From the NCBI GenBank assembly GCA_037189525.1, contig JBBCJC010000005.1, forward strand, positions 640,001-704,000: a stretch of 64,000 nucleotides of DNA. The letters are read 5' to 3'. Within the stretch, counting starts at the first letter, position 1, and every line of letters starts with the position of its first letter. The position numbers and the translations under genes were made by a program. This document shows, piece after piece, positions 51,505 to 62,167 of this stretch. Source of the DNA: Gemmatimonadales bacterium. GTDB lineage: Bacteria; Gemmatimonadota; Gemmatimonadetes; Gemmatimonadales; GWC2-71-9. The notes beneath the pieces were generated by a model that ran no database searches, was not told the DNA's origin, and was given only the letters and a program-made list of their open reading frames with translations.

Positions 51505-51927
51505 CTACCTGAAATGGGGACAGCCCAACGCCCGCCGCAACACCTCGGGCGCTCGACCTTGGACACGGAACCTACCAACCAGCATTCCGCGGGAGGGACC
51601 TGCAACACACGCAGCGGAAACCGCCGCCGTCGGCAACGCAACGGGCGGGACGAGGGCCCAAACGCCCTCCTCCTCGGCCGCCGGTTCCCAGGCGAGGTCG
51701 TCCGCGGGACCGACTTCGACTAACCGCACTTCGCCGTCCGCACCGACCGGCACCGAAATGACGAACCAGGTCCGGCGCGCCGTAACCGGACAACGACCGA
51801 AGAACCCATGCAGCGCACCGTCCGCCACGGCGATATCGCCGCTGACGGAAATCCGAAACTGGTGTATCGCACCACAGTCGTTGCAGGGAATCGCGGCCAC
51901 GTTCATCATTTCCAGTGGAGCCAGCAT
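51505..51927 (-). CDS. Hypothetical Cys-rich protein (possible zinc-ribbon N-terminus)
   Basis: SD GAGGA before ATG at 51927; CNDCGAIH...CPVT, C-terminal GCPHFR; preceded by the shared 30-bp element. Confidence 0.6.
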   Translation of the reverse strand: MLAPLEMMNVAAIPCNDCGAIHQFRISVSGDIAVADGALHGFFGRCPVTARRTWFVISVPVGADGEVRLVEVGPADDLAWEPAAEEEGVWALVPPVALPTAAVSAACVAGPSRGMLVGRFRVQGRAPEVLRRALGCPHFR

Positions 51928-51991: not shown

Positions 51992-52021
51992 CGCAAACAA
52001 CAAGTTGGGAAAAAACCTTGC
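51992..52021. promoter_or_regulatory. 30-bp shared upstream element, copy A
   Basis: CGCAAACAACAAGTTGGGAAAAAACCTTGC; 29/30 identical to 54704-54733. Confidence 0.8.
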
Positions 52022-52040
52022 CGTTCATGCAAGGAAAAAC

Positions 52041-52724
52041 CTAGGTCCGCGTCAATACGTCCTCGAGACTTGGCGCACCGGGTTGGCGCATCCGTTCCAG
52101 ACTCAGTTGCTGCAATGCACGAACATTGGTCACGCCGAGTGCTTTTTCGACCTTGACGCGATGGAACTCCACCGTCTTGGTCTCGACCCCGAGCAACTCG
52201 GCAATTTCCTGCGTCGTCTTGCCCAGGCCCAGCAGCGCAAACACCTGGCGCTGGCGGCGGGACAGGACTTCCAGCGGGTCGGTCAATCGACTGGTCGCCG
52301 ACTGGCGATCGTCTTCGACCGCGGGACGGGTCCGCGCTTCGAACTTCGGATTCCGATAGGTCCGGCCGGCCATCACGGTTTCGACGGCCGACAGCAAATC
52401 GGTATCGGAGGAGAGCTTGACCACGAAGCCCGCAGCTCCGGCGCGGAAGGCTTCGTCGACGTAGATCCGCTCCGTCTGCATCGACACCACCAGCACCTTG
52501 GTGTTCGGCGCCTCACGGCGAATGTCGCGGCAAATATCGAGGCCCAGACGATTGGGCATCAGGAGATCGAGCAGCACCAGATCGGGCGCGAGCGCATGGA
52601 CCTGCTCGAGCACCGCCGCACCGTCGTGCACCATCCCGATCACCTCGTACGTCGGTTCGAGCATGGCCTTGAGCCCCTGGCACACCAGGGCGTGATCGTC
52701 GGCCAGGAGGACACGGGCTCGCAT
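52041..52724 (-). CDS. NarL/FixJ family response regulator (REC + LuxR HTH)
   Basis: LADDH, LLDLLMP (phospho-Asp), FVVK, LSRRQRQV...TVEFHR. Confidence 0.93.
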   Translation of the reverse strand: MRARVLLADDHALVCQGLKAMLEPTYEVIGMVHDGAAVLEQVHALAPDLVLLDLLMPNRLGLDICRDIRREAPNTKVLVVSMQTERIYVDEAFRAGAAGFVVKLSSDTDLLSAVETVMAGRTYRNPKFEARTRPAVEDDRQSATSRLTDPLEVLSRRQRQVFALLGLGKTTQEIAELLGVETKTVEFHRVKVEKALGVTNVRALQQLSLERMRQPGAPSLEDVLTRT

Positions 52725-53500
52725 CAGATCGCTTCCCGTTCCGGAACCCAGGCAATGATCCGCGTACCGCGACCGGGCTTACTCACGATCGACAATTCGC
52801 CCTGAACGGCGCGAAGCCGCTCCGACATGCCTAACAGGCCGAGCCCCGCGCCGACACCTTCCGTCACGTTCATCCCGCGTCCTTTGTCCTCGATCTCGAG
52901 CACGATTCCGTCATCCTGCGACGTCAACCTGACTACAGCGGTGCGAATCTCGGCATGGCGCGTCACGTTGCGCAGGCCCTCCTGCGCAATCCGATAGAGC
53001 GCGAGCGATGCGGCATCGCCGACCCGGTCGAGCACCAGCATCGAGTCGGCGTAGACCTCGACGTTCAGGTCGTCCGACACCTTCATGTCGACCGCCAGTC
53101 CTCGGAGCGCCTGCACCAGCCCCAGGTGGTCGAGAATGGCCGGGTGCGCCCGCCGCGCCATGCTGCGCACCTCATCGGCCAAATCATTGAGCTCCTCACG
53201 CAATCCGTCGATCCGCTGGGTCACGGCCGATGTCGGGCTGGGAATCGCGCGTCCGAGCGCGCTCAATTCGCCTCCGATCAATGCCACCCGCTGAATCACG
53301 TCGTCGTGCAAGTCGCGCGCGATCCGCGACCGCTCCGCTTCCTGCGCTTCGACCATACCCTGGCTGAACCGCCGGCTCTGCTCTACCTGGCGCCGCTGGG
53401 CCACGACGATCACGCCGATGACGGTGCCAGCAAAAATCACCGTGACCATCGCGGTCAGGACGTAGACCCAGAAGATCGTCTCCGGACGCAGCGACGGCAT
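52724..53500 (-). CDS. Histidine kinase (HisKA_3 + HATPase_c) with one N-terminal TM and no sensor domain
   Basis: ERSRIARDLHD H-box, QEGLRNVTRHA N-box, DKGRG, GLGLLGM; TGATG overlap with the regulator. Confidence 0.92.
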   Translation of the reverse strand: MPSLRPETIFWVYVLTAMVTVIFAGTVIGVIVVAQRRQVEQSRRFSQGMVEAQEAERSRIARDLHDDVIQRVALIGGELSALGRAIPSPTSAVTQRIDGLREELNDLADEVRSMARRAHPAILDHLGLVQALRGLAVDMKVSDDLNVEVYADSMLVLDRVGDAASLALYRIAQEGLRNVTRHAEIRTAVVRLTSQDDGIVLEIEDKGRGMNVTEGVGAGLGLLGMSERLRAVQGELSIVSKPGRGTRIIAWVPEREAI

Positions 53501-53506
53501 GGCGTC

Positions 53507-54202
53507 TCACCCCCCGGGTACGACGGATCGGCGTCCGCTTCGCCGACCGGCGGCTACCGGGCGGTCGATGTGCCAGACACCCCACGCAATCATCAGATAT
53601 CCCGCAATGGCCAGCACCAGGCGAGCGTGGTACGCCAGGTTGACCAAGTCGTTCCGATCGCCGAACAGGTTGGCCAGGAGCGGCTCGAACACGACGGTTG
53701 CTCCGTAGATCACCATCATGCCGGTACACAGCCAGAACCAGAACTCCGAGGTCCACCGCTCATAGGTGACCTGCACCCGGGTGACCAGGGTAAAGCCCGA
53801 CGCCGCCGTGACGAACAGGATCTGCACCGGCCCCGAGATCAGACTGAAGTCGGCCGCGATGCCCTGCAGATACTGGGCAACACTCCACGCCAGGACGTAC
53901 GCACCAATCGCTCCCAGCATGACCTGCCGCTGCCATCGTTTCGGCTGCCACGCGGCAAAGCCGGCCAACGCCAGCACCGTGGCTACCAGCTGCGGACCCT
54001 CCTGCAGCAAACGGGTTCGCACGCCCCGGAGGGACAGGGGTGCGGCGACCATGGCATAGGCGAGATAGACGGCGATCGACACGATGTGAAACCGGCCGCC
54101 TCGATCGAGGACCGACCATCGTCGCACACCCCAGAGGACCACCACGGCCATCATGGCCGTTTCGATCGCCGCGAGCCAGAAGTACGCCGCCGCCCCTTCC
54201 AT
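53507..54202 (-). CDS. Hypothetical 7-TM membrane protein (candidate accessory sensor subunit)
   Basis: Seven hydrophobic segments, FWFWLCTGMMVIY; 6-nt and 8-nt gaps to its neighbours. Confidence 0.8.
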   Translation of the reverse strand: MEGAAAYFWLAAIETAMMAVVVLWGVRRWSVLDRGGRFHIVSIAVYLAYAMVAAPLSLRGVRTRLLQEGPQLVATVLALAGFAAWQPKRWQRQVMLGAIGAYVLAWSVAQYLQGIAADFSLISGPVQILFVTAASGFTLVTRVQVTYERWTSEFWFWLCTGMMVIYGATVVFEPLLANLFGDRNDLVNLAYHARLVLAIAGYLMIAWGVWHIDRPVAAGRRSGRRSVVPGG

Positions 54203-54210
54203 AGCGCCGA

Positions 54211-54615
54211 TTAGAAGTTGAAGACGCCGTTGATGTCCCCGCAGTACGGCGGGCACTTCCACGGCGTATCCCCAATAATGCCCTTCAGGATGTCATTGCC
54301 CTCGACGTCGACGCCGCAGAACATCAGCGTCACCGTGCCTTTGGCATCGACACCGGGATAGAAGCGCAGCCCCACACAGCCCTTCTGGGCCAGGATGTCC
54401 TTGAAAATGTTGGCCCCATAGGCCGAGGGCGCGAGTTCCCCGGTTCGGCCGGCGAATTTCTTGAGGTAGACCTCACGCATACGGCGAGCCTGGGCATGCG
54501 TCAGGCGATGCTTGCGAGTGCCGAACGGCGGCACCCGACGCTTGGGTTGCTTGGCCGGTGTTTGGGCCGCCGGCAGCTTCGATGCCGCAGTGCGCTTCGA
54601 GGGTTTGCGAACCAT
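54211..54615 (-). CDS. Small hypothetical protein with GCVGLRFY / GVD..GND core and C-terminal CPPYC motif
   Basis: SD GAGGAG; 134 aa; ...ILAQKGCVGLRFYPG...CGVDVEGNDIL...DTPWKCPPYCGDINGVFNF. Confidence 0.82.
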   Translation of the reverse strand: MVRKPSKRTAASKLPAAQTPAKQPKRRVPPFGTRKHRLTHAQARRMREVYLKKFAGRTGELAPSAYGANIFKDILAQKGCVGLRFYPGVDAKGTVTLMFCGVDVEGNDILKGIIGDTPWKCPPYCGDINGVFNF

Positions 54616-54703: not shown

Positions 54704-54733
54704 CGCAAAGAACAAGTTGGGAAAAAACCTTGC
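54704..54733. promoter_or_regulatory. 30-bp shared upstream element, copy B
   Basis: CGCAAAGAACAAGTTGGGAAAAAACCTTGC. Confidence 0.8.
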
Positions 54734-54797: not shown

Positions 54798-54823
54798 AAT
54801 AATTGAGTATATATTCAATTATT
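54798..54823. promoter_or_regulatory. 26-bp near-perfect palindrome, probable TetR operator of the efflux operon
   Basis: AATAATTGAGTATATATTCAATTATT; half-site AATTGAGT recurs at 54867 and 54881. Confidence 0.72.
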
Positions 54824-54882: not shown

Positions 54883-55548
54883 TTGAGTAAAGACACCGAA
54901 CAGCCGGTGGAAGCCTCCGATCGGCAACCGCGCTGGCGACGCCGACCCGCCGAGCGACGCAGTGAAATCGTCGATGCGGCGGCGGGGGTATTCGGAGAGC
55001 GCGGCTACGACCACGCCACGCTGACCGATATCGCCAAGCGCGCCGGTGTCTGCGTCGGCACCGTGGCGCACTACTTCGGCAGCAAGGAAGACCTCTTCCG
55101 CGCGGCCCTGTTCGACCGGGTTCACGAGGAGTTCGCCAGGGAAGAGGCCATCCTGGCCGGACATCAGGGTTCCTATCGGAGCCTGATCGAAGGCTTGCTG
55201 CAGCGCATGGCCGACCGGGTCCGGCGATTCGGAACCGGCGACCTGCTGTTCACCGGCCTGGCGAAGGCCAGCACATTTCCGCAAGCCGGCCACTTGCTCT
55301 GTACCGAGGTCGGCGACCGCTGGCGCCGACTCTTCTCCGGGGCAATCGAGGCCGGCATCCAGCAAGGTGAGTTCCGCCGCCTCGACCCCGATCGAACCGC
55401 CCGCGTCCTGGCGAGCGCGCTGATGGGCATGCTCGTCGCTCATGCGCGCCTGTCACGATTCGATCCGCGCAGCCCGACCGCCGATCAAATGATCGAGACC
55501 TATCTCGACCTGGTAAGCCACGCTCTTCTCGAGCCCAGAACACCCTGA
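54883..55548 (+). CDS. TetR/AcrR family regulator
   Basis: IAKRAGVCVGTVAHYFGSKEDLF HTH; first gene of the RND operon; TTG start uncertain. Confidence 0.9.
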   Translation: MSKDTEQPVEASDRQPRWRRRPAERRSEIVDAAAGVFGERGYDHATLTDIAKRAGVCVGTVAHYFGSKEDLFRAALFDRVHEEFAREEAILAGHQGSYRSLIEGLLQRMADRVRRFGTGDLLFTGLAKASTFPQAGHLLCTEVGDRWRRLFSGAIEAGIQQGEFRRLDPDRTARVLASALMGMLVAHARLSRFDPRSPTADQMIETYLDLVSHALLEPRTP

Positions 55549-55551
55549 ACC

Positions 55552-56679
55552 ATGTTACCCACTCATCGCTACCCGCTTGCTGCGCTTGTCCTCGCTTTAC
55601 CGCTGACGGCCTGCCAGTCACCGCCGCCGCCCGTCATGCCGCCCACCGAAGTGACCGTGGTCGACGTCGCCCCCCAAACGCTCGGCGAATCCATCGAGTT
55701 CATGGGCGCCGTCGAGGCGTACCGGAACGTCGAGATCCGGTCGCAGGTCGCCGGGATCGTACTCGAGCGGCCTTTCACAGAAGGCGCCGCCGTGCAGGCG
55801 GGTCAGGTCCTCTATCGGATCGATCCGCTCCAGTACGACGCCGCCTGGCGAAGCGCTCGGAGCCGTCTCGCCGAGTCTGAAGCACGGCTGGCCAACGCCG
55901 AGCGGAACCTGGCGCGACTCAAGCCGCTCCTGGCCGACAACGCCGTCGCCCGGCGCGACGTCGACGACGCCGATGCCGAGCTGGCGCGCGCCCGCGCTTC
56001 GGCGGACGACATGCGCGCTGCGGTCGACCGCGCCAAGAAAGATCTGGACGAAGCCACCGTCCGGGCGCCGATTGCCGGCCGCGTCGGACGCGCCCATCTC
56101 CAGATCGGAGCGCGCGTCACCGGCCCCGGCGACCTCCTGACCACGATCGACGTGATCGATCCGGTCTATGTCTCGTTCCGGCCGAGCGCGGCGCAGACAC
56201 TGGCCTGGCGGCGCGACCCCGTAGCGGGCAAAGCCCTCCTGCCCGGAGGCACAGCCCGGATCGAGCTGACCCTGCCCGATGGCTCCGCCTTTCCGCGGCA
56301 GGGCCGGATCGATTTCGTCGACCCGGTCGTCGATCCGGCCACCGGAACGCAGCAGTATCGGGCAACCTTTGCCAACGGCGAGCGCCTCCTGGTGCCGGGA
56401 CAGTTCGTCCGGGCGTCGCTGCGCGGCTTGCAGCGCGTCAACACCCTGGCCGTCCCGCAGCGAGCGGTCCAACAGGTGCTCAACCGGCAGTTCATCTATG
56501 TGGTGGGCGCCGGTGACACGGTGCGCGCCCATGATGTTCGCACCGGCGCGCTGCTCGACAGCCTGTGGATCATCGAGGAGGGGATTACCGCCGGAGACCG
56601 CGTCGTGGTCGACGGGGTGCAGAAGATCGGTCCCGGTGCGGTGGTCAAGCCCGTAACGGCGGCACGGCCGGGCACATGA
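55552..56679 (+). CDS. RND efflux periplasmic adaptor (AcrA/MexA-like), lipoprotein
   Basis: LTAC lipobox, EIRSQVAG, VRAPIAGRVG, LVPGQFVR. Confidence 0.93.
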   Translation: MLPTHRYPLAALVLALPLTACQSPPPPVMPPTEVTVVDVAPQTLGESIEFMGAVEAYRNVEIRSQVAGIVLERPFTEGAAVQAGQVLYRIDPLQYDAAWRSARSRLAESEARLANAERNLARLKPLLADNAVARRDVDDADAELARARASADDMRAAVDRAKKDLDEATVRAPIAGRVGRAHLQIGARVTGPGDLLTTIDVIDPVYVSFRPSAAQTLAWRRDPVAGKALLPGGTARIELTLPDGSAFPRQGRIDFVDPVVDPATGTQQYRATFANGERLLVPGQFVRASLRGLQRVNTLAVPQRAVQQVLNRQFIYVVGAGDTVRAHDVRTGALLDSLWIIEEGITAGDRVVVDGVQKIGPGAVVKPVTAARPGT

Positions 56680-59600
56680 GTACTCCCAACGTCCTCCCGC
56701 CTACCGAGCGGGAATACCTATTCATCCGGCGCCCCGTCACGGCCGCCGTGATTTCGATCGTGATCGTGCTGCTCGGCCTGTTCGCCATGCGGAGCCTGCC
56801 GATCGCCCGTTTTCCCCAGATCACCCCGCCAGCGATTCAGGTCACGGCTGTCTTTCCGGGCGCCACTGCCGAAGACGTGGCCCAGGCGGTTGCGGCCCCG
56901 ATCGAGCAGCAATTGTCGGGACTCAACGGCCTGCTCTACTTCAAGTCGGCCAATTCGTCCGACGGCGTGATGAATCTCGAAATCGTGTTCGACATCTCGC
57001 GCGACCAGGACCTGGCCGCCGTCGACGTCCAGAACGCGGTCAAGCTGGCCGAGCCGCAGTTGCCGGAAGAGGTGCGGCGGAACGGCATCGTGATTCAGAA
57101 GTCGCAGAGCGACATCCTGATGGTCGGGTCGCTCACCTCGGACGATCCGAATCACAGCATCGAGTTCATTACGAACTACGCCAAGCTCTACGTCGAGGAC
57201 GAACTCAAGCGGATTCCCGGCGTCGGCAACGCCCAGGCGTTCGGCGGCCGCGAGTTTGCCATGCAGATCAGCCTCGACCCGGATCGGATGGCGCGGCTGG
57301 GCGTCACGGTCCAGGAAGTGGCCGCTGCCATTCGCGACCAGAACGCCACCAACCCCGCCGGTCGGCTCGGCCGGCAACCGTCGCCCGAATCGACCGAGCT
57401 GACCTTTGCCGTGACCACCCGCGGACGGCTCGCGACTGCTGCGCAGTTCGACAGCGTGGTGGTGCGCGCGCGGACCGACGGCTCCCTGATCCGGGTCGGC
57501 GACGTCGGCAGCGCCAATCTCGGGGCCCGGAGCTACGATGCTACCGGTCGCCTGAACGGCAAACCGACCACCAACTTCCTGGTCAATCAGCGTCCGGGCG
57601 CCAACGCGCTCGACGTCAAGCAGGCCATCGACGACCGGATGGCCGAGTTGAGCCGGACCTTCCCGCCCGGCTTCCAATGGCAGGCCGCGTTCGACACCAC
57701 GCCGTTCATCCGTGAGTCGATCACGGAAGTCGTCAAGACACTGCTCGAAGCAATGGTGCTGGTGACGCTGGTCGTCTTCATCTTCCTGCAGAGCTGGCGC
57801 GCAACCCTGATCCCGCTCCTGGCCGTCCCGGTCAGCATCATCGGCACCTTCCTGGGCCTCCAGGCCATGGGCATGTCGATCAACACGCTGACGCTCTTCG
57901 GCCTGGTGCTCGCGATCGGTATCGTCGTCGACGACGCCATTGTGGTCATCGAAAACGTCGAACGGATCATGGCCGAAGAGCACGTGCCTCCTCGAGAAGC
58001 GGCCAATCGGGCCATGAAACAGGTCTCGGGCGCGCTGATCGCCATCGTCCTGGTGCTCTGCGCCGTGTTCGTGCCGGTTGCCTTCATCGGCGGCGTGACG
58101 GGCGAGTTCTACAAGCAGTTTGCCGTGACCATCGTGATCTCGGTGGTGCTGTCCGGCATCGTCGCGCTGACCCTGACGCCGGCGTTGTGCGCCGTCCTGT
58201 TGACGCATTCGAACGAGGACAGCACCAACAAGTACGCCCGGAAGTTCAACACCTGGTTCCATCGGGTCACCGATCGCTACCTGGGCGGCGTCGGCCGTCT
58301 GGTGGGTCGGCCGCGGCGCTGGCTGGCCATCTTCGGTGTGATGACGGTGCTCACCGTCGTGCTGGCCCGCCGGGTACCGACCGGGTTCCTGCCGACCGAA
58401 GACAAGGGCTTCTTCGTGGTCTCGATCCAGCTGCCGGACGCCGCGTCCCTGCCCCGGACCGAGGCCTTCGTCGAGCAGGTCGAAGCCATGCTCGCCAAGG
58501 AACCGGCCGTGACCAACATCACGGCCATGGTCGGACTCGACATCCTGACCCGGGCGACCCAGACCAACAGCGCCACCATGTTCGTGCGACTGGCCCCCTG
58601 GGAGGAGCGCAACGCGAATCAGAGCGTCGATGCCATCCTGGCCCGTACCAACGGCGCGCTCTGGGGCATGAAGGAAGCGATTGCCTTCGGCTTCAACTTC
58701 CCCGAGGTCCCGGGGCTCGGTACCTCCGCAGGACTCGAGCTCAATCTGCAGGCGCGTAGCGGCAGTGACATCCGCCACTTCGCGCAGCAGGCCCGTTCCT
58801 TCGTCGCGGACGCCAATCAGCTTCCGGAAATCCAGGGCGCCAACACCACGATCCGCGCCGATGTGCCCCAGGTGTATGTCGATATCGACCGGGATGCTGC
58901 CGCGGCCAAGGGTGTCAGCATCGGCTCCATTTCATCGACCATGCAGGCGCTCCTGTCGACCCTGTATGTCAACGACTTCAACCTCTATGGCCGGACCTGG
59001 CGGGTGCAGGCCGACGCGGGAGCGGCGTTCCGGCAGCATCCGGAAGACATTGCCCGCCTCTACGTCCGGGGACACGGCGGCGAGATGGTGCCGCTTGGTT
59101 CGCTGATCCGCACCGAAATGCGCACCGGGCCGAGTATGGTCACCCGGTTCAATGGATTTCCTTCGGCCATGGTGACGGCCACGCCCAAGCCGGGTAAGAG
59201 TTCGGGCGAAATGCTCGATGCGGTCGAGAACCTGGTGGCCGAGAAGTACGCGGCCGACGGGATCGGCTCGGCGTTCAGCGGCCAGTCGTTTCAGGAACGC
59301 CGCACCAGCGGTGAAGCCGGCCTGGTCTTCGTACTCGGCCTGATCCTGGTCTTCCTGGTGCTTGCCGCGCTGTACGAAAGCTGGGCAATTCCCTTTGCGG
59401 TCGTGCTGGGCGTACCGTTCGGCGTTGCAGGCGCGTATTTGGGGGTCTGGCTGCGCGGTATCCCGAGCGACATCTACTTCACGGTCGGCCTCATCACCGT
59501 CGTCGGCCTGGCCGCCAAGAACGCGATTCTGATCGTCGAGTTCGCGACGGAACTCAGGCGCAAAGGCCTTGCCGTTCGTGAAGCGGCCATGGAAGCGGCC

Positions 59601-59843
59601 CGGGAACGTTTCCGCCCCATCCTGATGACCTCGTTCGCCTTCATTCTGGGCGTGCTGCCGCTGGTGATCTCGGGCGGCGCGGGCGCGGCCGGCCGGCACT
59701 CGCTCGGCACCGGCGTGTTCTTCGGAATGCTGGCGGCCACGATCATCGGTGTCTTCTTCATTCCGCTCTTCTTCTTCGTGATCCAGCGGCTGACCGAGCG
59801 GAAACAGTCCGTGCCGGCCGGCGCCGTGGAGGAACGATCATGA
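56676..59843 (+). CDS. RND efflux inner-membrane transporter (HAE1; AcrB/MexB-like)
   Basis: FIRRP, GIVVDDAIVVIENVER, KNAILIVEFA and RFRPILMTS motifs. Confidence 0.96.
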   Translation: MSTPNVLPPTEREYLFIRRPVTAAVISIVIVLLGLFAMRSLPIARFPQITPPAIQVTAVFPGATAEDVAQAVAAPIEQQLSGLNGLLYFKSANSSDGVMNLEIVFDISRDQDLAAVDVQNAVKLAEPQLPEEVRRNGIVIQKSQSDILMVGSLTSDDPNHSIEFITNYAKLYVEDELKRIPGVGNAQAFGGREFAMQISLDPDRMARLGVTVQEVAAAIRDQNATNPAGRLGRQPSPESTELTFAVTTRGRLATAAQFDSVVVRARTDGSLIRVGDVGSANLGARSYDATGRLNGKPTTNFLVNQRPGANALDVKQAIDDRMAELSRTFPPGFQWQAAFDTTPFIRESITEVVKTLLEAMVLVTLVVFIFLQSWRATLIPLLAVPVSIIGTFLGLQAMGMSINTLTLFGLVLAIGIVVDDAIVVIENVERIMAEEHVPPREAANRAMKQVSGALIAIVLVLCAVFVPVAFIGGVTGEFYKQFAVTIVISVVLSGIVALTLTPALCAVLLTHSNEDSTNKYARKFNTWFHRVTDRYLGGVGRLVGRPRRWLAIFGVMTVLTVVLARRVPTGFLPTEDKGFFVVSIQLPDAASLPRTEAFVEQVEAMLAKEPAVTNITAMVGLDILTRATQTNSATMFVRLAPWEERNANQSVDAILARTNGALWGMKEAIAFGFNFPEVPGLGTSAGLELNLQARSGSDIRHFAQQARSFVADANQLPEIQGANTTIRADVPQVYVDIDRDAAAAKGVSIGSISSTMQALLSTLYVNDFNLYGRTWRVQADAGAAFRQHPEDIARLYVRGHGGEMVPLGSLIRTEMRTGPSMVTRFNGFPSAMVTATPKPGKSSGEMLDAVENLVAEKYAADGIGSAFSGQSFQERRTSGEAGLVFVLGLILVFLVLAALYESWAIPFAVVLGVPFGVAGAYLGVWLRGIPSDIYFTVGLITVVGLAAKNAILIVEFATELRRKGLAVREAAMEAARERFRPILMTSFAFILGVLPLVISGGAGAAGRHSLGTGVFFGMLAATIIGVFFIPLFFFVIQRLTERKQSVPAGAVEERS

Positions 59844-61282
59844 TCCGCTCGCTCCGCATTCTCATTCCGGTCGCCCTGGCGGCCGGCTGCGCCGTGGGTC
59901 CGTCGCCGCGCGTGCGGCCGGAACCGATTGCGCCGCTCCGAACCGCAGCCGGGGATGATGCTCCCCGGCCGCTGCTCGACTCACTCGTCACGGCCAACCT
60001 GCCCGCCACCGGCCCGCTCGTGCTGGCCGACGATCCGGCGGCGGTCGCGCTCCAGTGGCTCGATGTCGTCAACGATCCGGCGCTCGCAACCTTGGTACGT
60101 ACGGCGGTCGAACGGAATCTCGACCTGCAGGCCGCCGCAGCCCGAGTGCGCGAGTATCGCGCTCTCTTCGGCGCCGCCCGGGGCGAACTGCTGCCCCGGC
60201 TCGATGCCAACGGGTCCTATAGTACCAACCAGGCCGTCTTCGGCTCGCTCGGTGCGATGCAGTACGACGCCGTGCGGATCTCGGCCGACCTGCAATGGGA
60301 GCTCGATTTCTGGGGCAAGCTGCGGCGGCAGACCCAGGCCGCGCGCTTCGACTGGGGCGCCCGGGAGGACGACCGTCAGGCGATCCTGCTCAGCCTGGTG
60401 AGCGATGTGGTCACCGCGTACCTCGAGTTGCGCGAACTGGACGAAAACGTCCGCGTCACCGAGCAGACGTTGGCGAGTCGCGAAGCAACCCTGCGCCTGG
60501 CTCGTCAGCGCTTTGCGCAGGGGGTCATTTCCGAGCTCGACGTCCGGCAGTTCGAAGCCGAACTGGCCGGTCCCGCGGCGCGAGTGGCCGAGTTCATTCG
60601 GTTGCGGACGCAGAAGGAGAACCAGCTCTCGGTGCTGCTGGGCCAGGCGCCTCAGCCCATCGTGCGCGGATTACCGCTCGATTCGACCGTCCGGAAGATC
60701 ACGCCGCCCGATTCGATCTCGTCGAGCCTCCTGGCCCGTCGGCCCGATGTGATGCGGGCCACCAAGTCCTGGTCGGCCGCGGCAGCACGGGTCGGCGTCG
60801 CGGTCGGAAACCGGTTGCCGCGCATTGCGCTGACCGGATCGTACGGCACCCAGCAGCCCGATTTCAGCGGCCTGTTTGCCACCAACGGCGAGGTCTATGC
60901 CGCCGGTGTCAACGTCTCGCTGCCGCTGTTTACCGGCGGACGCCTGCTCAACCAGCAGCGGGCGGCGGCGGCACGCGCCGATCAGGCGCGGATCGACTAC
61001 GAGCGCACGGTGCTGACCGCGCTGCGCGAAGCCAACGACGCGCTCTCGTCGGTCCGTCTCTCACGCCAGCAGTTGGCCGCGCAGCTGACTCAGACCCAGG
61101 CGCTCCGGCGCGCCGTTACGCTGGCTGAGCAGCGCTATGAAGCGGGGATTTCGAGTTACCTCGAGGTGCTCGATGCCCAGCGCGGCCTCTATGCAGCCGA
61201 ACTGGGCTTAGTCCAGACGCAGCGTCAGACGCTGACCACGACGGTCCAGTTGTACAAGGCGTTCGGCGGCAACTGGCAGTAG
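59840..61282 (+). CDS. Outer membrane efflux factor (OprM/NodT-like), lipoprotein
   Basis: LAAGC lipobox, WELDFWG, RRPDV and LYKAFGGNW motifs. Confidence 0.94.
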   Translation: MIRSLRILIPVALAAGCAVGPSPRVRPEPIAPLRTAAGDDAPRPLLDSLVTANLPATGPLVLADDPAAVALQWLDVVNDPALATLVRTAVERNLDLQAAAARVREYRALFGAARGELLPRLDANGSYSTNQAVFGSLGAMQYDAVRISADLQWELDFWGKLRRQTQAARFDWGAREDDRQAILLSLVSDVVTAYLELRELDENVRVTEQTLASREATLRLARQRFAQGVISELDVRQFEAELAGPAARVAEFIRLRTQKENQLSVLLGQAPQPIVRGLPLDSTVRKITPPDSISSSLLARRPDVMRATKSWSAAAARVGVAVGNRLPRIALTGSYGTQQPDFSGLFATNGEVYAAGVNVSLPLFTGGRLLNQQRAAAARADQARIDYERTVLTALREANDALSSVRLSRQQLAAQLTQTQALRRAVTLAEQRYEAGISSYLEVLDAQRGLYAAELGLVQTQRQTLTTTVQLYKAFGGNWQ

Positions 61283-61411: not shown

Positions 61412-61720
61412 CTATGCGGCGACCAACGGCTCGATCTTCTTGATTGCTTTGGCAGCCGGCGCGCGCATGGCATGCCACAGATCCCAGTCTTGCTGCAAGC
61501 CAAGCCAGAAATCAGCCGGCATACCCGTCGCCTGAGCAAAGCGCAGAGCGGTGTCCGGTGTCACACCTCGCTTTCCCCGAACAATCTCATGGAGGCGCAC
61601 AAATGAGACGCCAATTCGGCGCGCAAAGGCGCTCTGGCTTTCGTTGTACTCCTCCAGGAACTCCTTGAGCAGCATCTCCCCAGGATGGGTCGGGGGGCGA
61701 TTCGTTGGCAAGCGCGGCAT
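61412..61720 (-). CDS. higA: HigA family antitoxin (HTH-XRE)
   Basis: PTHPGEMLLKEFL, GKRGVTPDTALR and FWLGLQ motifs; SD AGGAGG. Confidence 0.93.
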   Translation of the reverse strand: MPRLPTNRPPTHPGEMLLKEFLEEYNESQSAFARRIGVSFVRLHEIVRGKRGVTPDTALRFAQATGMPADFWLGLQQDWDLWHAMRAPAAKAIKKIEPLVAA

Positions 61721-61747
61721 GAGAACACAGCCTCCTGCAATGTGTAT

Positions 61748-61804
61748 CTATAACGCATGTCGTTATTACGACTTGTATTATACACCGTTCTCGGCGCCAT
61801 ACAA
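61748..61804 (-). promoter_or_regulatory. higA promoter (TTGTAT-N16-TATAAT) with downstream palindromic operator
   Basis: -35 at 61804-61799, -10 at 61782-61777; operator ATAACG-catgt-CGTTAT at 61750-61766. Confidence 0.7.
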
Positions 61805-61841
61805 CGGCAAGAGAACGTAGCGCCCCCAACTAGACCGAACC

Positions 61842-61870
61842 TTGAGCGCTATAACATATAGCGTTACACT
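61842..61870 (+). promoter_or_regulatory. higB promoter (TTGAGC-N17-TACACT) with overlapping operator
   Basis: Operator CTATAAC-atatagc-GTTAC at 61849-61867, same TAAC-N7-GTTA geometry as the higA site. Confidence 0.7.
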
Positions 61871-61877
61871 GCCGCCA

Positions 61878-62167
61878 ATGATCCAGTCCTTCTTGAATGA
61901 GGGTACTGCCGACATCTTCGACGGCAAGGATACGGCCGCCGCCCGAAAGGTGTGCCCGTCCAACCTCGTAGACGTCGCCCGCCGCAAGCTGGATCTCGTC
62001 AACCGTGCAGTACACGTTTCCGACCTTCGCATCCCACCAGGAAATCGTCTCGAGAAGCTGAAACGGAACCGCGAAGGAGCATGGAGCATTCGAATCAACG
62101 ATCAGTACCGAGTCTGCTTCCGATGGGACAAAGGCGCCCATGATGTCGAATCACCGACTATCACTAG
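61878..62167 (+). pseudogene. higB: HigB-like (RelE/ParE superfamily) toxin with an apparent 1-nt deletion near the 3' end; as sequenced the ORF reads on to 62204
   Basis: MIQSF...ARRKL...LRIPPGNRLEKL...WSIRINDQYRVCFRW; adding one A at 62150 restores VEITDYH-stop. Confidence 0.8.

Follow-up and report, generated by a model that had tools for sequence, protein, structure and literature searches.

A candidate kin-specific signalling cassette of Gemmatimonadota, Bacteroidota and relatives: a small CPxxC protein, a stand-alone seven-helix protein, a sensor-less kinase and a NarL-type regulator

Introduction

In the agr system, the signal gene and the genes for a polytopic receptor, a kinase and a regulator are encoded in one autoregulated operon. 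UhpC-UhpB-UhpA, LiaFSR/VraTSR, SaePQRS and KbaA-KinB are three-component systems, which contain an accessory membrane protein. Here, we describe a cassette of four genes located in the window, a stretch of 64,000 nt of the genome of a Gemmatimonadales bacterium (assembly GCA_037189525.1, contig JBBCJC010000005.1, positions 640,001 to 704,000), whose logic is known from agr and the three-component systems, but whose input parts belong to neither. The cassette encodes a small protein, a protein with seven transmembrane helices (7TM), a histidine kinase and a response regulator. The simplest account of all its features, which we regard as reasonably likely, is that it serves a kin-specific, autoinduced protein or peptide signal. 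The four genes are:

54211..54615, minus strand: small protein gene, 134 aa; putative signal or signal precursor
53507..54202, minus strand: 7TM gene, 231 aa; stand-alone protein, N-out/C-in, putative receptor
52724..53500, minus strand: kinase gene, 258 aa; HisKA_3, one transmembrane (TM) helix, no sensor domain
52041..52724, minus strand: regulator gene, 227 aa; NarL/LuxR-type response regulator

The hypervariable region of agr spans agrB to agrC and defines allele groups, as described in the accessible part of PMC6834553. The cassette resembles agr in that a hypervariable block couples the putative signal and sensor in the Bacteroidia relatives; its promoter carries lineage-specific boxes, which are putative sites for its own regulator. 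In contrast to agr, it contains neither an AgrB-like enzyme nor an AgrD-family propeptide; a folded domain of about 105 aa takes the place of a short propeptide as the putative signal, the putative receptor is encoded separately from the kinase, a HisKA_3 kinase and a NarL-type regulator are used rather than LytTR, and the hosts possess an outer membrane. With the three-component systems, the cassette shares a sensor-poor HisKA_3 kinase and a NarL regulator that are co-encoded with a separate membrane protein. It differs from them in its membrane partner, a 7TM protein whose family is unnamed, and in having a dedicated small partner and allele-block exchange. A literature search, which is no proof that the system is unpublished as most subscription journals and bioRxiv supplements were outside its reach, retrieved no description of the cassette; PMC12419801 is unrelated as far as its accessible part goes.

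Gene order and distribution of the cassette

The cassette genes are separated by 8 nt (small and 7TM gene) and 6 nt (7TM and kinase gene), followed by a TGATG overlap of kinase and regulator gene. The preliminary description of this DNA, made from the sequence alone, had reported four co-oriented, tightly packed genes, and their sizes and gaps were reproduced, with all four on the minus strand; its interval, 52041..54615, encloses the four genes correctly but omits the 30-nt direct repeats and the fifth gene described below. The window's genome contains one copy each of the small gene and the 7TM gene.

Relatives of the small gene were searched in 401 genomes of the phylum, in 151 genomes of the Ignavibacterium-centred class and in a genome collection, whose loci stem from Bacteroidota, Neomarinimicrobiota, Calditrichota, KSB1 and others; 55 genomes of the phylum and 32 of the class carry the gene. 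The set used for gene order consists of 100 loci: 20 stem from the phylum set, and the genome collection, with 158 loci, contributed its best 80. L041 and L119 probably represent a single locus. Order was counted in the 79 loci with at least 2.6 kb downstream, leaving out 21 shorter ones, among them L117, which has no 7TM gene despite 1.5 kb of room. The 7TM gene follows the small gene in all 79 loci and all four genes are present in 74, which bears out, across phyla, the expectation that the genes co-occur; the neighbourhoods also support the earlier statement that relatives sit beside kinase/regulator pairs in Bacteroidota. Because the four-gene arrangement is conserved across phyla, it is not due to chance. 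The pair of small and 7TM gene persists where the class of the kinase changes (L119, L125, L131, L136 and L138); therefore, these two proteins together with the kinase helix constitute the input module. Listing of the open reading frames (ORFs) in the neighbourhoods revealed no further conserved gene in the cassette, be it an exporter, a processing enzyme or an AgrB-like enzyme, and neither conserved defence genes nor a conserved substrate gene. One genome contains, apart from a full cassette, a boxed 7TM-kinase-regulator operon that lacks the small gene (L280, 9752-11945) and that possibly encodes an eavesdropping receptor. Judged by their sequences, the small protein and the 7TM protein belong to large unnamed families.

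In the kinase, HisKA_3 and HATPase_c domains directly follow a single N-terminal TM helix, and H65, the N box and both G boxes are intact; the regulator combines Response_reg and GerE and contains D53 and K103. The pair thus has the features of a NarL-family two-component system, namely a kinase with H, N and G boxes and a receiver with a LuxR helix-turn-helix, the phosphorylated aspartate and the lysine. MctS, UhpB and LiaS are the best NCBIfam matches of the kinase, each below the cut-off. The kinase had been described as having one TM helix and no input domain, and indeed the helix leads straight into the H box; it probably docks on the 7TM protein. The recognition helix of the regulator is identical in five congeners.

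The small protein and its relatives

The small protein of the window consists of a basic N-terminal extension without a hydrophobic core, a compact alpha/beta domain and a tail of the form D-x4-C-P-P-Y-C. Its length of 134 aa, its motifs GCVGLRFY, GVDxEGND and DTPWKCPPYC and the absence of a signal peptide agree with the preliminary description, and no hydrophobic segment was detected by hydropathy. Twin-arginine export of the window's protein was considered and rejected: KRR is present, but no hydrophobic core follows. The predicted structure is compact, with two helices and a beta hairpin (mean predicted local distance difference test score, pLDDT, 89.8).

A profile built from nine close relatives matched 1509 representatives at a cut-off of E 0.001. 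Neither Pfam nor NCBIfam provides a family for the window's protein, none of the 79 aligned members has a credible Pfam match, and the named matches of the family are hypothetical proteins of Bacteroidota, KSB1 and Hymenobacter; the ESM Atlas returned nothing but 'hypothetical protein' clusters, and sequence searches of the PDB gave no match for either the small or the 7TM family. Nothing stood out in a fold search with the model (best Z 3.1 among 48,161 representatives), which is no proof of a new fold, and Foldseek found no match at E 0.001. Relatives of the Bacteroidota member P0243 were absent from phage and plasmid collections.

The tail is conserved, as the earlier proposal required: CPxxC is present in 143 of the 150 best representatives. 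The residue five positions before the first Cys, D116 in the window's protein, is D, E, Q or N in 287 of 290 motifs, and the four residues between it and the first Cys as well as the two inside CPxxC are highly variable. Self-processing modules, such as intein-like, GAIN and thioester domains, undergo autocatalytic cleavage or cross-linking at a conserved acyl donor and nucleophile. The conservation of this residue, together with Ser or Thr in place of the first Cys in three loci, is suggestive of such self-cleaving or self-cross-linking chemistry; an equally good explanation of the conserved residue would be a buried contact with the conserved Arg84. Release of a tail cyclised as a disulfide or thiolactone, suggested earlier, is possible but finds no support: the domain is predicted to be compact with an ordered tail (pLDDT 92), an AgrB-like enzyme or exporter is lacking, and 77 of the 150 best representatives are tandem two-domain proteins, of which 33 carry two motifs, one CPxxC being internal.

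According to a simple hydropathy rule, 47 of the 150 best representatives possess an N-terminal hydrophobic segment. Signal-peptide forms are encoded directly before the same 7TM family in L167, L172, L174, L177 and L179, and longer stretches of four signal-peptide loci contain a one-TM kinase-type gene next in all four and a regulator in three. By this sequence evidence, the small protein works outside the cytoplasm in signal-peptide lineages, and since these forms occur in the same cassette, action on the outer face of the receptor is indicated. The proposal that the small protein is a cytoplasmic thiol or metal modulator is weakened by the signal-peptide forms in full cassettes and by L090, L093 and L121, in which the first Cys is replaced by Ser or Thr.

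A related explanation, which we consider unlikely but worth keeping in view, is a cell-autonomous accessory sensor, in which the small protein would be a permanent subunit or modulator of the 7TM-kinase pair and CPxxC would sense thiol status, metal or envelope damage. LiaFSR, SaePQRS and UhpABC are precedents for this logic, and it agrees with the compact domain, with the UhpB/LiaS-like kinase, with the fact that most members of the small family are leaderless, and with the commonness of autoregulation among ordinary two-component systems. The third Cys is kept in 113 of 116 leaderless versus 21 of 27 signal-peptide members, which are not phylogenetically independent; its retention in leaderless forms is what a reducing compartment would lead one to expect. 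However, the same receptor family serves secreted and leaderless forms, and the Ser/Thr variants named above speak against thiol or metal sensing. A fixed chemical stimulus would also leave unexplained why blocks are repeatedly exchanged between near-identical genomes (see below), why extra tail and receptor modules exist, and why some loci carry the small gene in 2-4 identical copies.

The polar residues R84, Y86, D108, D116, C121 and C125 are conserved and could form an active site. The small protein might be no signal at all, but an induced antagonist acting as a feedback brake, or a small enzyme by which some other ligand of the 7TM protein is made, modified or destroyed. The first position under an induced promoter would suit a brake, and the boxed operon without a small gene (L280) and Cys-less small-gene paralogues, which adjoin the 7TM gene in several Ignavibacteria-class loci, fit a brake or enzyme. 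We nevertheless judge this improbable, as the variable residues inside the motif travel with the receptor allele, which makes a binding epitope likelier than a catalytic site, and as no substrate gene is conserved nearby.

In eight loci, tandem small genes end in a Cys-less variant beside the receptor. These loci (L161, L162, L164, L168, L170, L171, L173 and L178) carry near-identical tandem small genes with a conserved acidic/Pro-rich N-terminal extension; the final variant copy, the tail of which lacks the acidic residue and both Cys, is a possible antagonist or partner subunit.

The seven-transmembrane protein

The gene before the kinase gene had been described as encoding a 7TM protein, and the predicted model indeed consists of seven helices (pLDDT 93), with N-out/C-in topology according to the distribution of lysine and arginine. 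The 7TM protein of the window matches no family in Pfam or NCBIfam, and a relative at 90% identity carries the label Gemmatimonadales. Gemmatimonad and Bacteroidota-group 7TM proteins form one family (profile-profile probability 99.4% over 213 columns; 72 of 75 found across groups). A search of 96 7TM members and 79 small proteins yielded no UhpC/MFS, LiaF, SaeP/Q or KbaA family above cut-off; homology of the 7TM family to KbaA was rejected, as it consists of a single weak match in 91 members (E 9e-5, below cut-off). No fused 7TM ORF of over 320 aa was found in the 80 loci from the genome collection.

In a structural search with the 7TM model, the best 50 matches are all G protein-coupled receptors (GPCRs), GPCR-like proteins or rhodopsins, with Z 10.4-12.7, root-mean-square deviations of 4.1-6.8 over about 200 residues and 4-11% sequence identity; Foldseek retrieved the same classes (best E 3.5e-3). 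For helical bundles, such Z values lie below the decisive level and can reflect a common arrangement, not kinship or function. The predicted 7TM model is similar to GPCRs (class B, adhesion, Ste2) and microbial rhodopsins in its seven helices and N-out/C-in orientation. Unlike the rhodopsins, the window's protein has no Lys in helix 7 (184-210) that could bind retinal, which excludes a retinal protein. In contrast to GPCRs, its output would run via the kinase TM helix, which is nearer to the sensory rhodopsin-transducer principle than to G proteins. A complex prediction for 7TM (1-215) and small protein (30-134), both as alignments and without controls, gave a score of 0.00, which is no evidence either way.

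Exchange of allele blocks

Among 75 complete cassettes, 22 pairs, which are not independent, have regulators that are at least 90% identical. In these pairs, mean identity is 91% for the kinase, 82% for the core of the small protein, 68% for the 7TM protein and 64% for the variable tail sites. When the DNA of L103 is compared with that of L111, identity is 90-100% as far as the codons of the tail, falls to 51-73% in the tail, 7TM gene and kinase TM helix, and returns to 95-100% where the cytoplasmic part of the kinase begins; the 7TM proteins of the two loci share 36% identity, whereas kinase and regulator are 99-100% identical. A similar dip was found in L069/L074 and L081/L083. Pairs with identical tails (n=3) have 7TM identities of 87-100%, compared to 36-84% in the other 19 pairs, and in 68 of 76 close pairs, divergence is greater in the outer half of the 7TM protein than in its inner half. 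As read from these alignments, tail, 7TM gene and kinase TM helix are swapped as one block between close Bacteroidia relatives. Both ends of the block fall on functional borders, which argues for a functional meaning of the swap. The joint exchange of kinase TM helix and 7TM gene supports the split receptor of 7TM protein and kinase that had been suggested earlier, and the quorum-type logic suggested for the locus is supported by the hypervariable block and the promoter boxes.

Across the genus of the window's bacterium, receptors are 32-53% and regulators 72-77% identical. Spare modules, in which half a small gene with a different tail is accompanied by a second 7TM gene, are present in L040 (6044-6223) and L120 (6978-7154), and the half gene of L120 has DNA homology to the full small gene. 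By its layout, recombination with such a module would exchange the tail and the receptor in one event, comparable to the orphan modules found in polymorphic toxin loci.

Promoter boxes and probable autoregulation

The cassette is flanked by a 30-nt direct repeat, 29 of 30 positions being identical, whose copies precede the small gene and a fifth gene. The features outside the four genes are:

54704..54733, minus strand: cassette promoter box, core CAAGG-T6-CCCAACTTG on the minus strand; probable site for the cassette's own regulator
52030..52044, minus strand: weaker box-like site, overlaps the regulator stop codon; similar upstream sites in congeners
51992..52021, minus strand: promoter box, second copy, located before the fifth gene and followed by TTGTTG-N17-TAATGT (sigma70-like)
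51505..51927, minus strand: fifth gene, encoding 140 aa rich in Cys (CxxC...CP...C); the regulator's probable target

Both copies lie 65-90 nt before a minus-strand start, and the cassette box abuts a -35-like TTGTTC at 54715-54710. A third copy is located on contig C13, where it precedes cas3, the gene of a type I-E operon, by about 80 nt, and a weaker fourth one before an unnamed exported-looking protein. In all five congeners, the box precedes both the small gene and the fifth gene, the latter following the cassette with a box of its own; the fifth gene has no Pfam or NCBIfam family. Among 301 genomes of the order, the box pattern occurs in five, all belonging to this genus, and is absent from the other 296, while a reversed control was never found; the box-bearing genomes share one regulator recognition helix.

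The box abuts TTGnnn-N17-nAnnnT, a position that would suit an activator. An RpoH-type or extracytoplasmic function (ECF)-type promoter instead of an activator box is not favoured, since TTGnnn-N17-nAnnnT fits sigma70 spacing. That the 30-nt repeats are a target-site duplication or att pair was ruled out, as single copies of the motif are also found before other genes, as it is conserved along with a -35/-10-like pair, and as congeners retain it despite differing flanks; a LexA-like global damage box was rejected because of just 3-5 sites per genome.

Distant cassettes have palindromes of their own. Before 60 non-Gemmatimonad small genes, GT-N6-AC was observed 141 times, compared to 37 expected, and control spacers of 4, 5, 7 and 8 gave 64, 22, 36 and 32 occurrences; 41 of the 60 cassettes have two or more sites, with arrays spaced 22-26 nt. 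Self-induction of the cassette is thus probable, given the genus-specific box before the small gene and the separate NarL-type palindromes of distant cassettes.

Genes behind the boxes

Apart from those of the cassette, the six genomes of the genus contain 14 boxes. They precede cas3, a WYL gene ahead of a TmtA-like/HmaA/HmaC island, an RHS protein, a metallo-beta-lactamase-fold protein matching Avs1a and LmuA models, three exported-looking proteins, one kinase-like ORF and four short hydrophobic ORFs, among which three show clear homology; two are found beside insertion-sequence remnants. In the window's genome, the type I-E CRISPR repeat is present in 55 copies on C13 and 58 on C1, and the cas genes have a low GC content at third codon positions (about 0.6), which points to recent acquisition, although the box of the cassette lies before them. 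From the position of this box, CRISPR immunity genes are probably switched on by the cassette in this genome. Behind a strong box in L059, L061 and L065, a 68-aa single-TM protein without a Pfam family is encoded; it was not found in the window's genome.

In ten Bacteroidia genomes, the palindrome of each cassette recurs at several to about twenty places. We hand-picked 40 Bacteroidia regions, in which all palindrome sites are intergenic, and scanned 58 of the 101 genes listed behind the sites, leaving out cassette genes, tiny ORFs and repeats and adding three third-position genes; palindromes between divergent genes were counted both ways, and some targets are false. A type IX secretion signal is present on 14 of the 58, against a background of 107 to over 150 genes per 3.2-4.9 Mb, by estimate roughly 3-6% of all genes; secreted proteins are the largest annotated class. 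Six targets are defence-like (GmrSD_N, HEPN, Dam, DndB, FRG, AAA_21), several others encode proteases, lipases, S74-chaperone or RHS proteins, and for 20 no family was identified. Secreted goods and defence are the usual output of quorum sensing; its control over CRISPR-Cas is documented in the accessible part of PMC5179492.

These targets also bear on a guard or bait against phages or competitors, in which the small protein would restrain the receptor until a protease or binder of an invader attacks the variable tail and frees the kinase, which then turns on defence, and in which an arms race, rather than kin recognition, would drive diversity. Hypervariability fits such an arms race, as do boxes before cas3, the WYL/defence island, the Avs1a/LmuA-matching protein and the GmrSD, Dam/DndB, FRG and AAA_21 genes; however, among the annotated Bacteroidia targets, secreted proteins (14 of 58) and not defence-like ones (6 of 58) form the largest class, no PADLOC model matches the small or the 7TM protein, and the cassette neighbourhoods lack conserved defence genes in the ORF listing. 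We consider the guard very improbable.

Location of the cassette and neighbouring genes

In the window, the cassette sits between a TetR/RND locus and galE; judged by its neighbourhoods, it has changed place within the genus. No RNA holder is listed for the region. In three of five congeners (L032, L033 and L034), it directly follows a tRNA cluster ending in tRNA-Lys(CTT). Divergent from the cassette, a TetR-like gene and a resistance-nodulation-division (RND) efflux operon of periplasmic adaptor, pump and outer-membrane factor, named from sequence features, extend over 54883-61282; a 13-nt inverted repeat at 54798-54823 precedes the TetR-like gene and is probably the TetR operator. The region 61412-62141 contains ORFs that we take, from their motifs, to be a HigA-like antitoxin (61412-61720, minus strand) and a nearby HigB-like toxin.

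A kin-specific signal as the favoured account

The kin-specific, autoinduced signal builds on the gene order, phosphorelay residues, boxes, allele blocks and secreted relatives seen in the sequences, from which we infer partner binding, its activating sign and passage of the signal from cell to cell. The small protein, whole or as a piece with the variable D/E-x4-C-P-x-x-C loop, would reach the outer face of the cognate 7TM protein, which would control the sensor-less kinase via the kinase's single TM helix; the cassette would then switch on its own promoter. Exchange of tail, receptor and kinase TM helix as one allele would give rise to specificity groups. Leaderless forms would leave the cell by lysis or a non-classical route, delivery being the weak step of this account, and release by lysis would make the cassette a kin-death alarm, PARA-like in logic.

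Several observations weigh against a kin-specific signal. An N-terminal hydrophobic segment is missing from the small protein of the window and from 103 of the 150 best representatives, the cassette contains no exporter or processing enzyme, and a protein of 12-15 kDa should not cross the outer membrane. Binding of the regulator to the box is deduced from position and lineage restriction. As tail and 7TM gene are adjacent, their co-exchange may be hitchhiking; the partial correlation of 7TM identity and tail match is 0.33 over 150 non-independent pairs, and in contigs from four other studies, the window's allele recurs at about 95-98% over the whole cassette, with no swap among nearest kin. 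Finally, of the 14 boxes that the genus has outside the cassette, only 4 lie before genes of defence or conflict, and a box before cas3 is found in one genome only.

Going further, the cassette may be, as a tentative proposal, a widespread and so far undescribed protein-pheromone or kin-lysis alarm of Gram-negative FCB-group bacteria, in which the small protein is secreted, lysis-released or self-processed depending on the lineage. A variable disulfide loop would act on a stand-alone receptor of GPCR fold and thereby on the kinase helix, alleles would recombine, including silent spare modules, and CRISPR-Cas, other defences and secreted weapons would be switched on.

Biological significance

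Quorum sensing that uses peptides or proteins and comprises specificity groups is textbook knowledge for Gram-positive bacteria and, as far as we are aware, hardly known in Gram-negative phyla. In Serratia, an acyl-homoserine lactone population signal induces CRISPR-Cas (accessible part of PMC5179492), and PARA and Gac/Rsm of Pseudomonas induce antibacterial and antiphage factors after lysis of kin (accessible parts of PMC4348357 and PMC11888443). The cassette would likewise tie a population signal or kin lysis to immunity; whereas those systems use acyl-homoserine lactones or Gac/Rsm, it is compact and allele-specific, with unrelated input proteins. The proposal makes a precise prediction, in the form of a named DNA box, its targets (cas3 in the window's genome) and allele pairs without cross-activation. 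If it is true, Bacteroidota, Gemmatimonadota and their relatives have their own version of quorum sensing, built from two large unnamed families, and a GPCR-shaped bacterial receptor has its natural ligand encoded next door. Many matched ligand-receptor pairs would then be at hand for 7TM signalling without G proteins and for orthogonal reporters.

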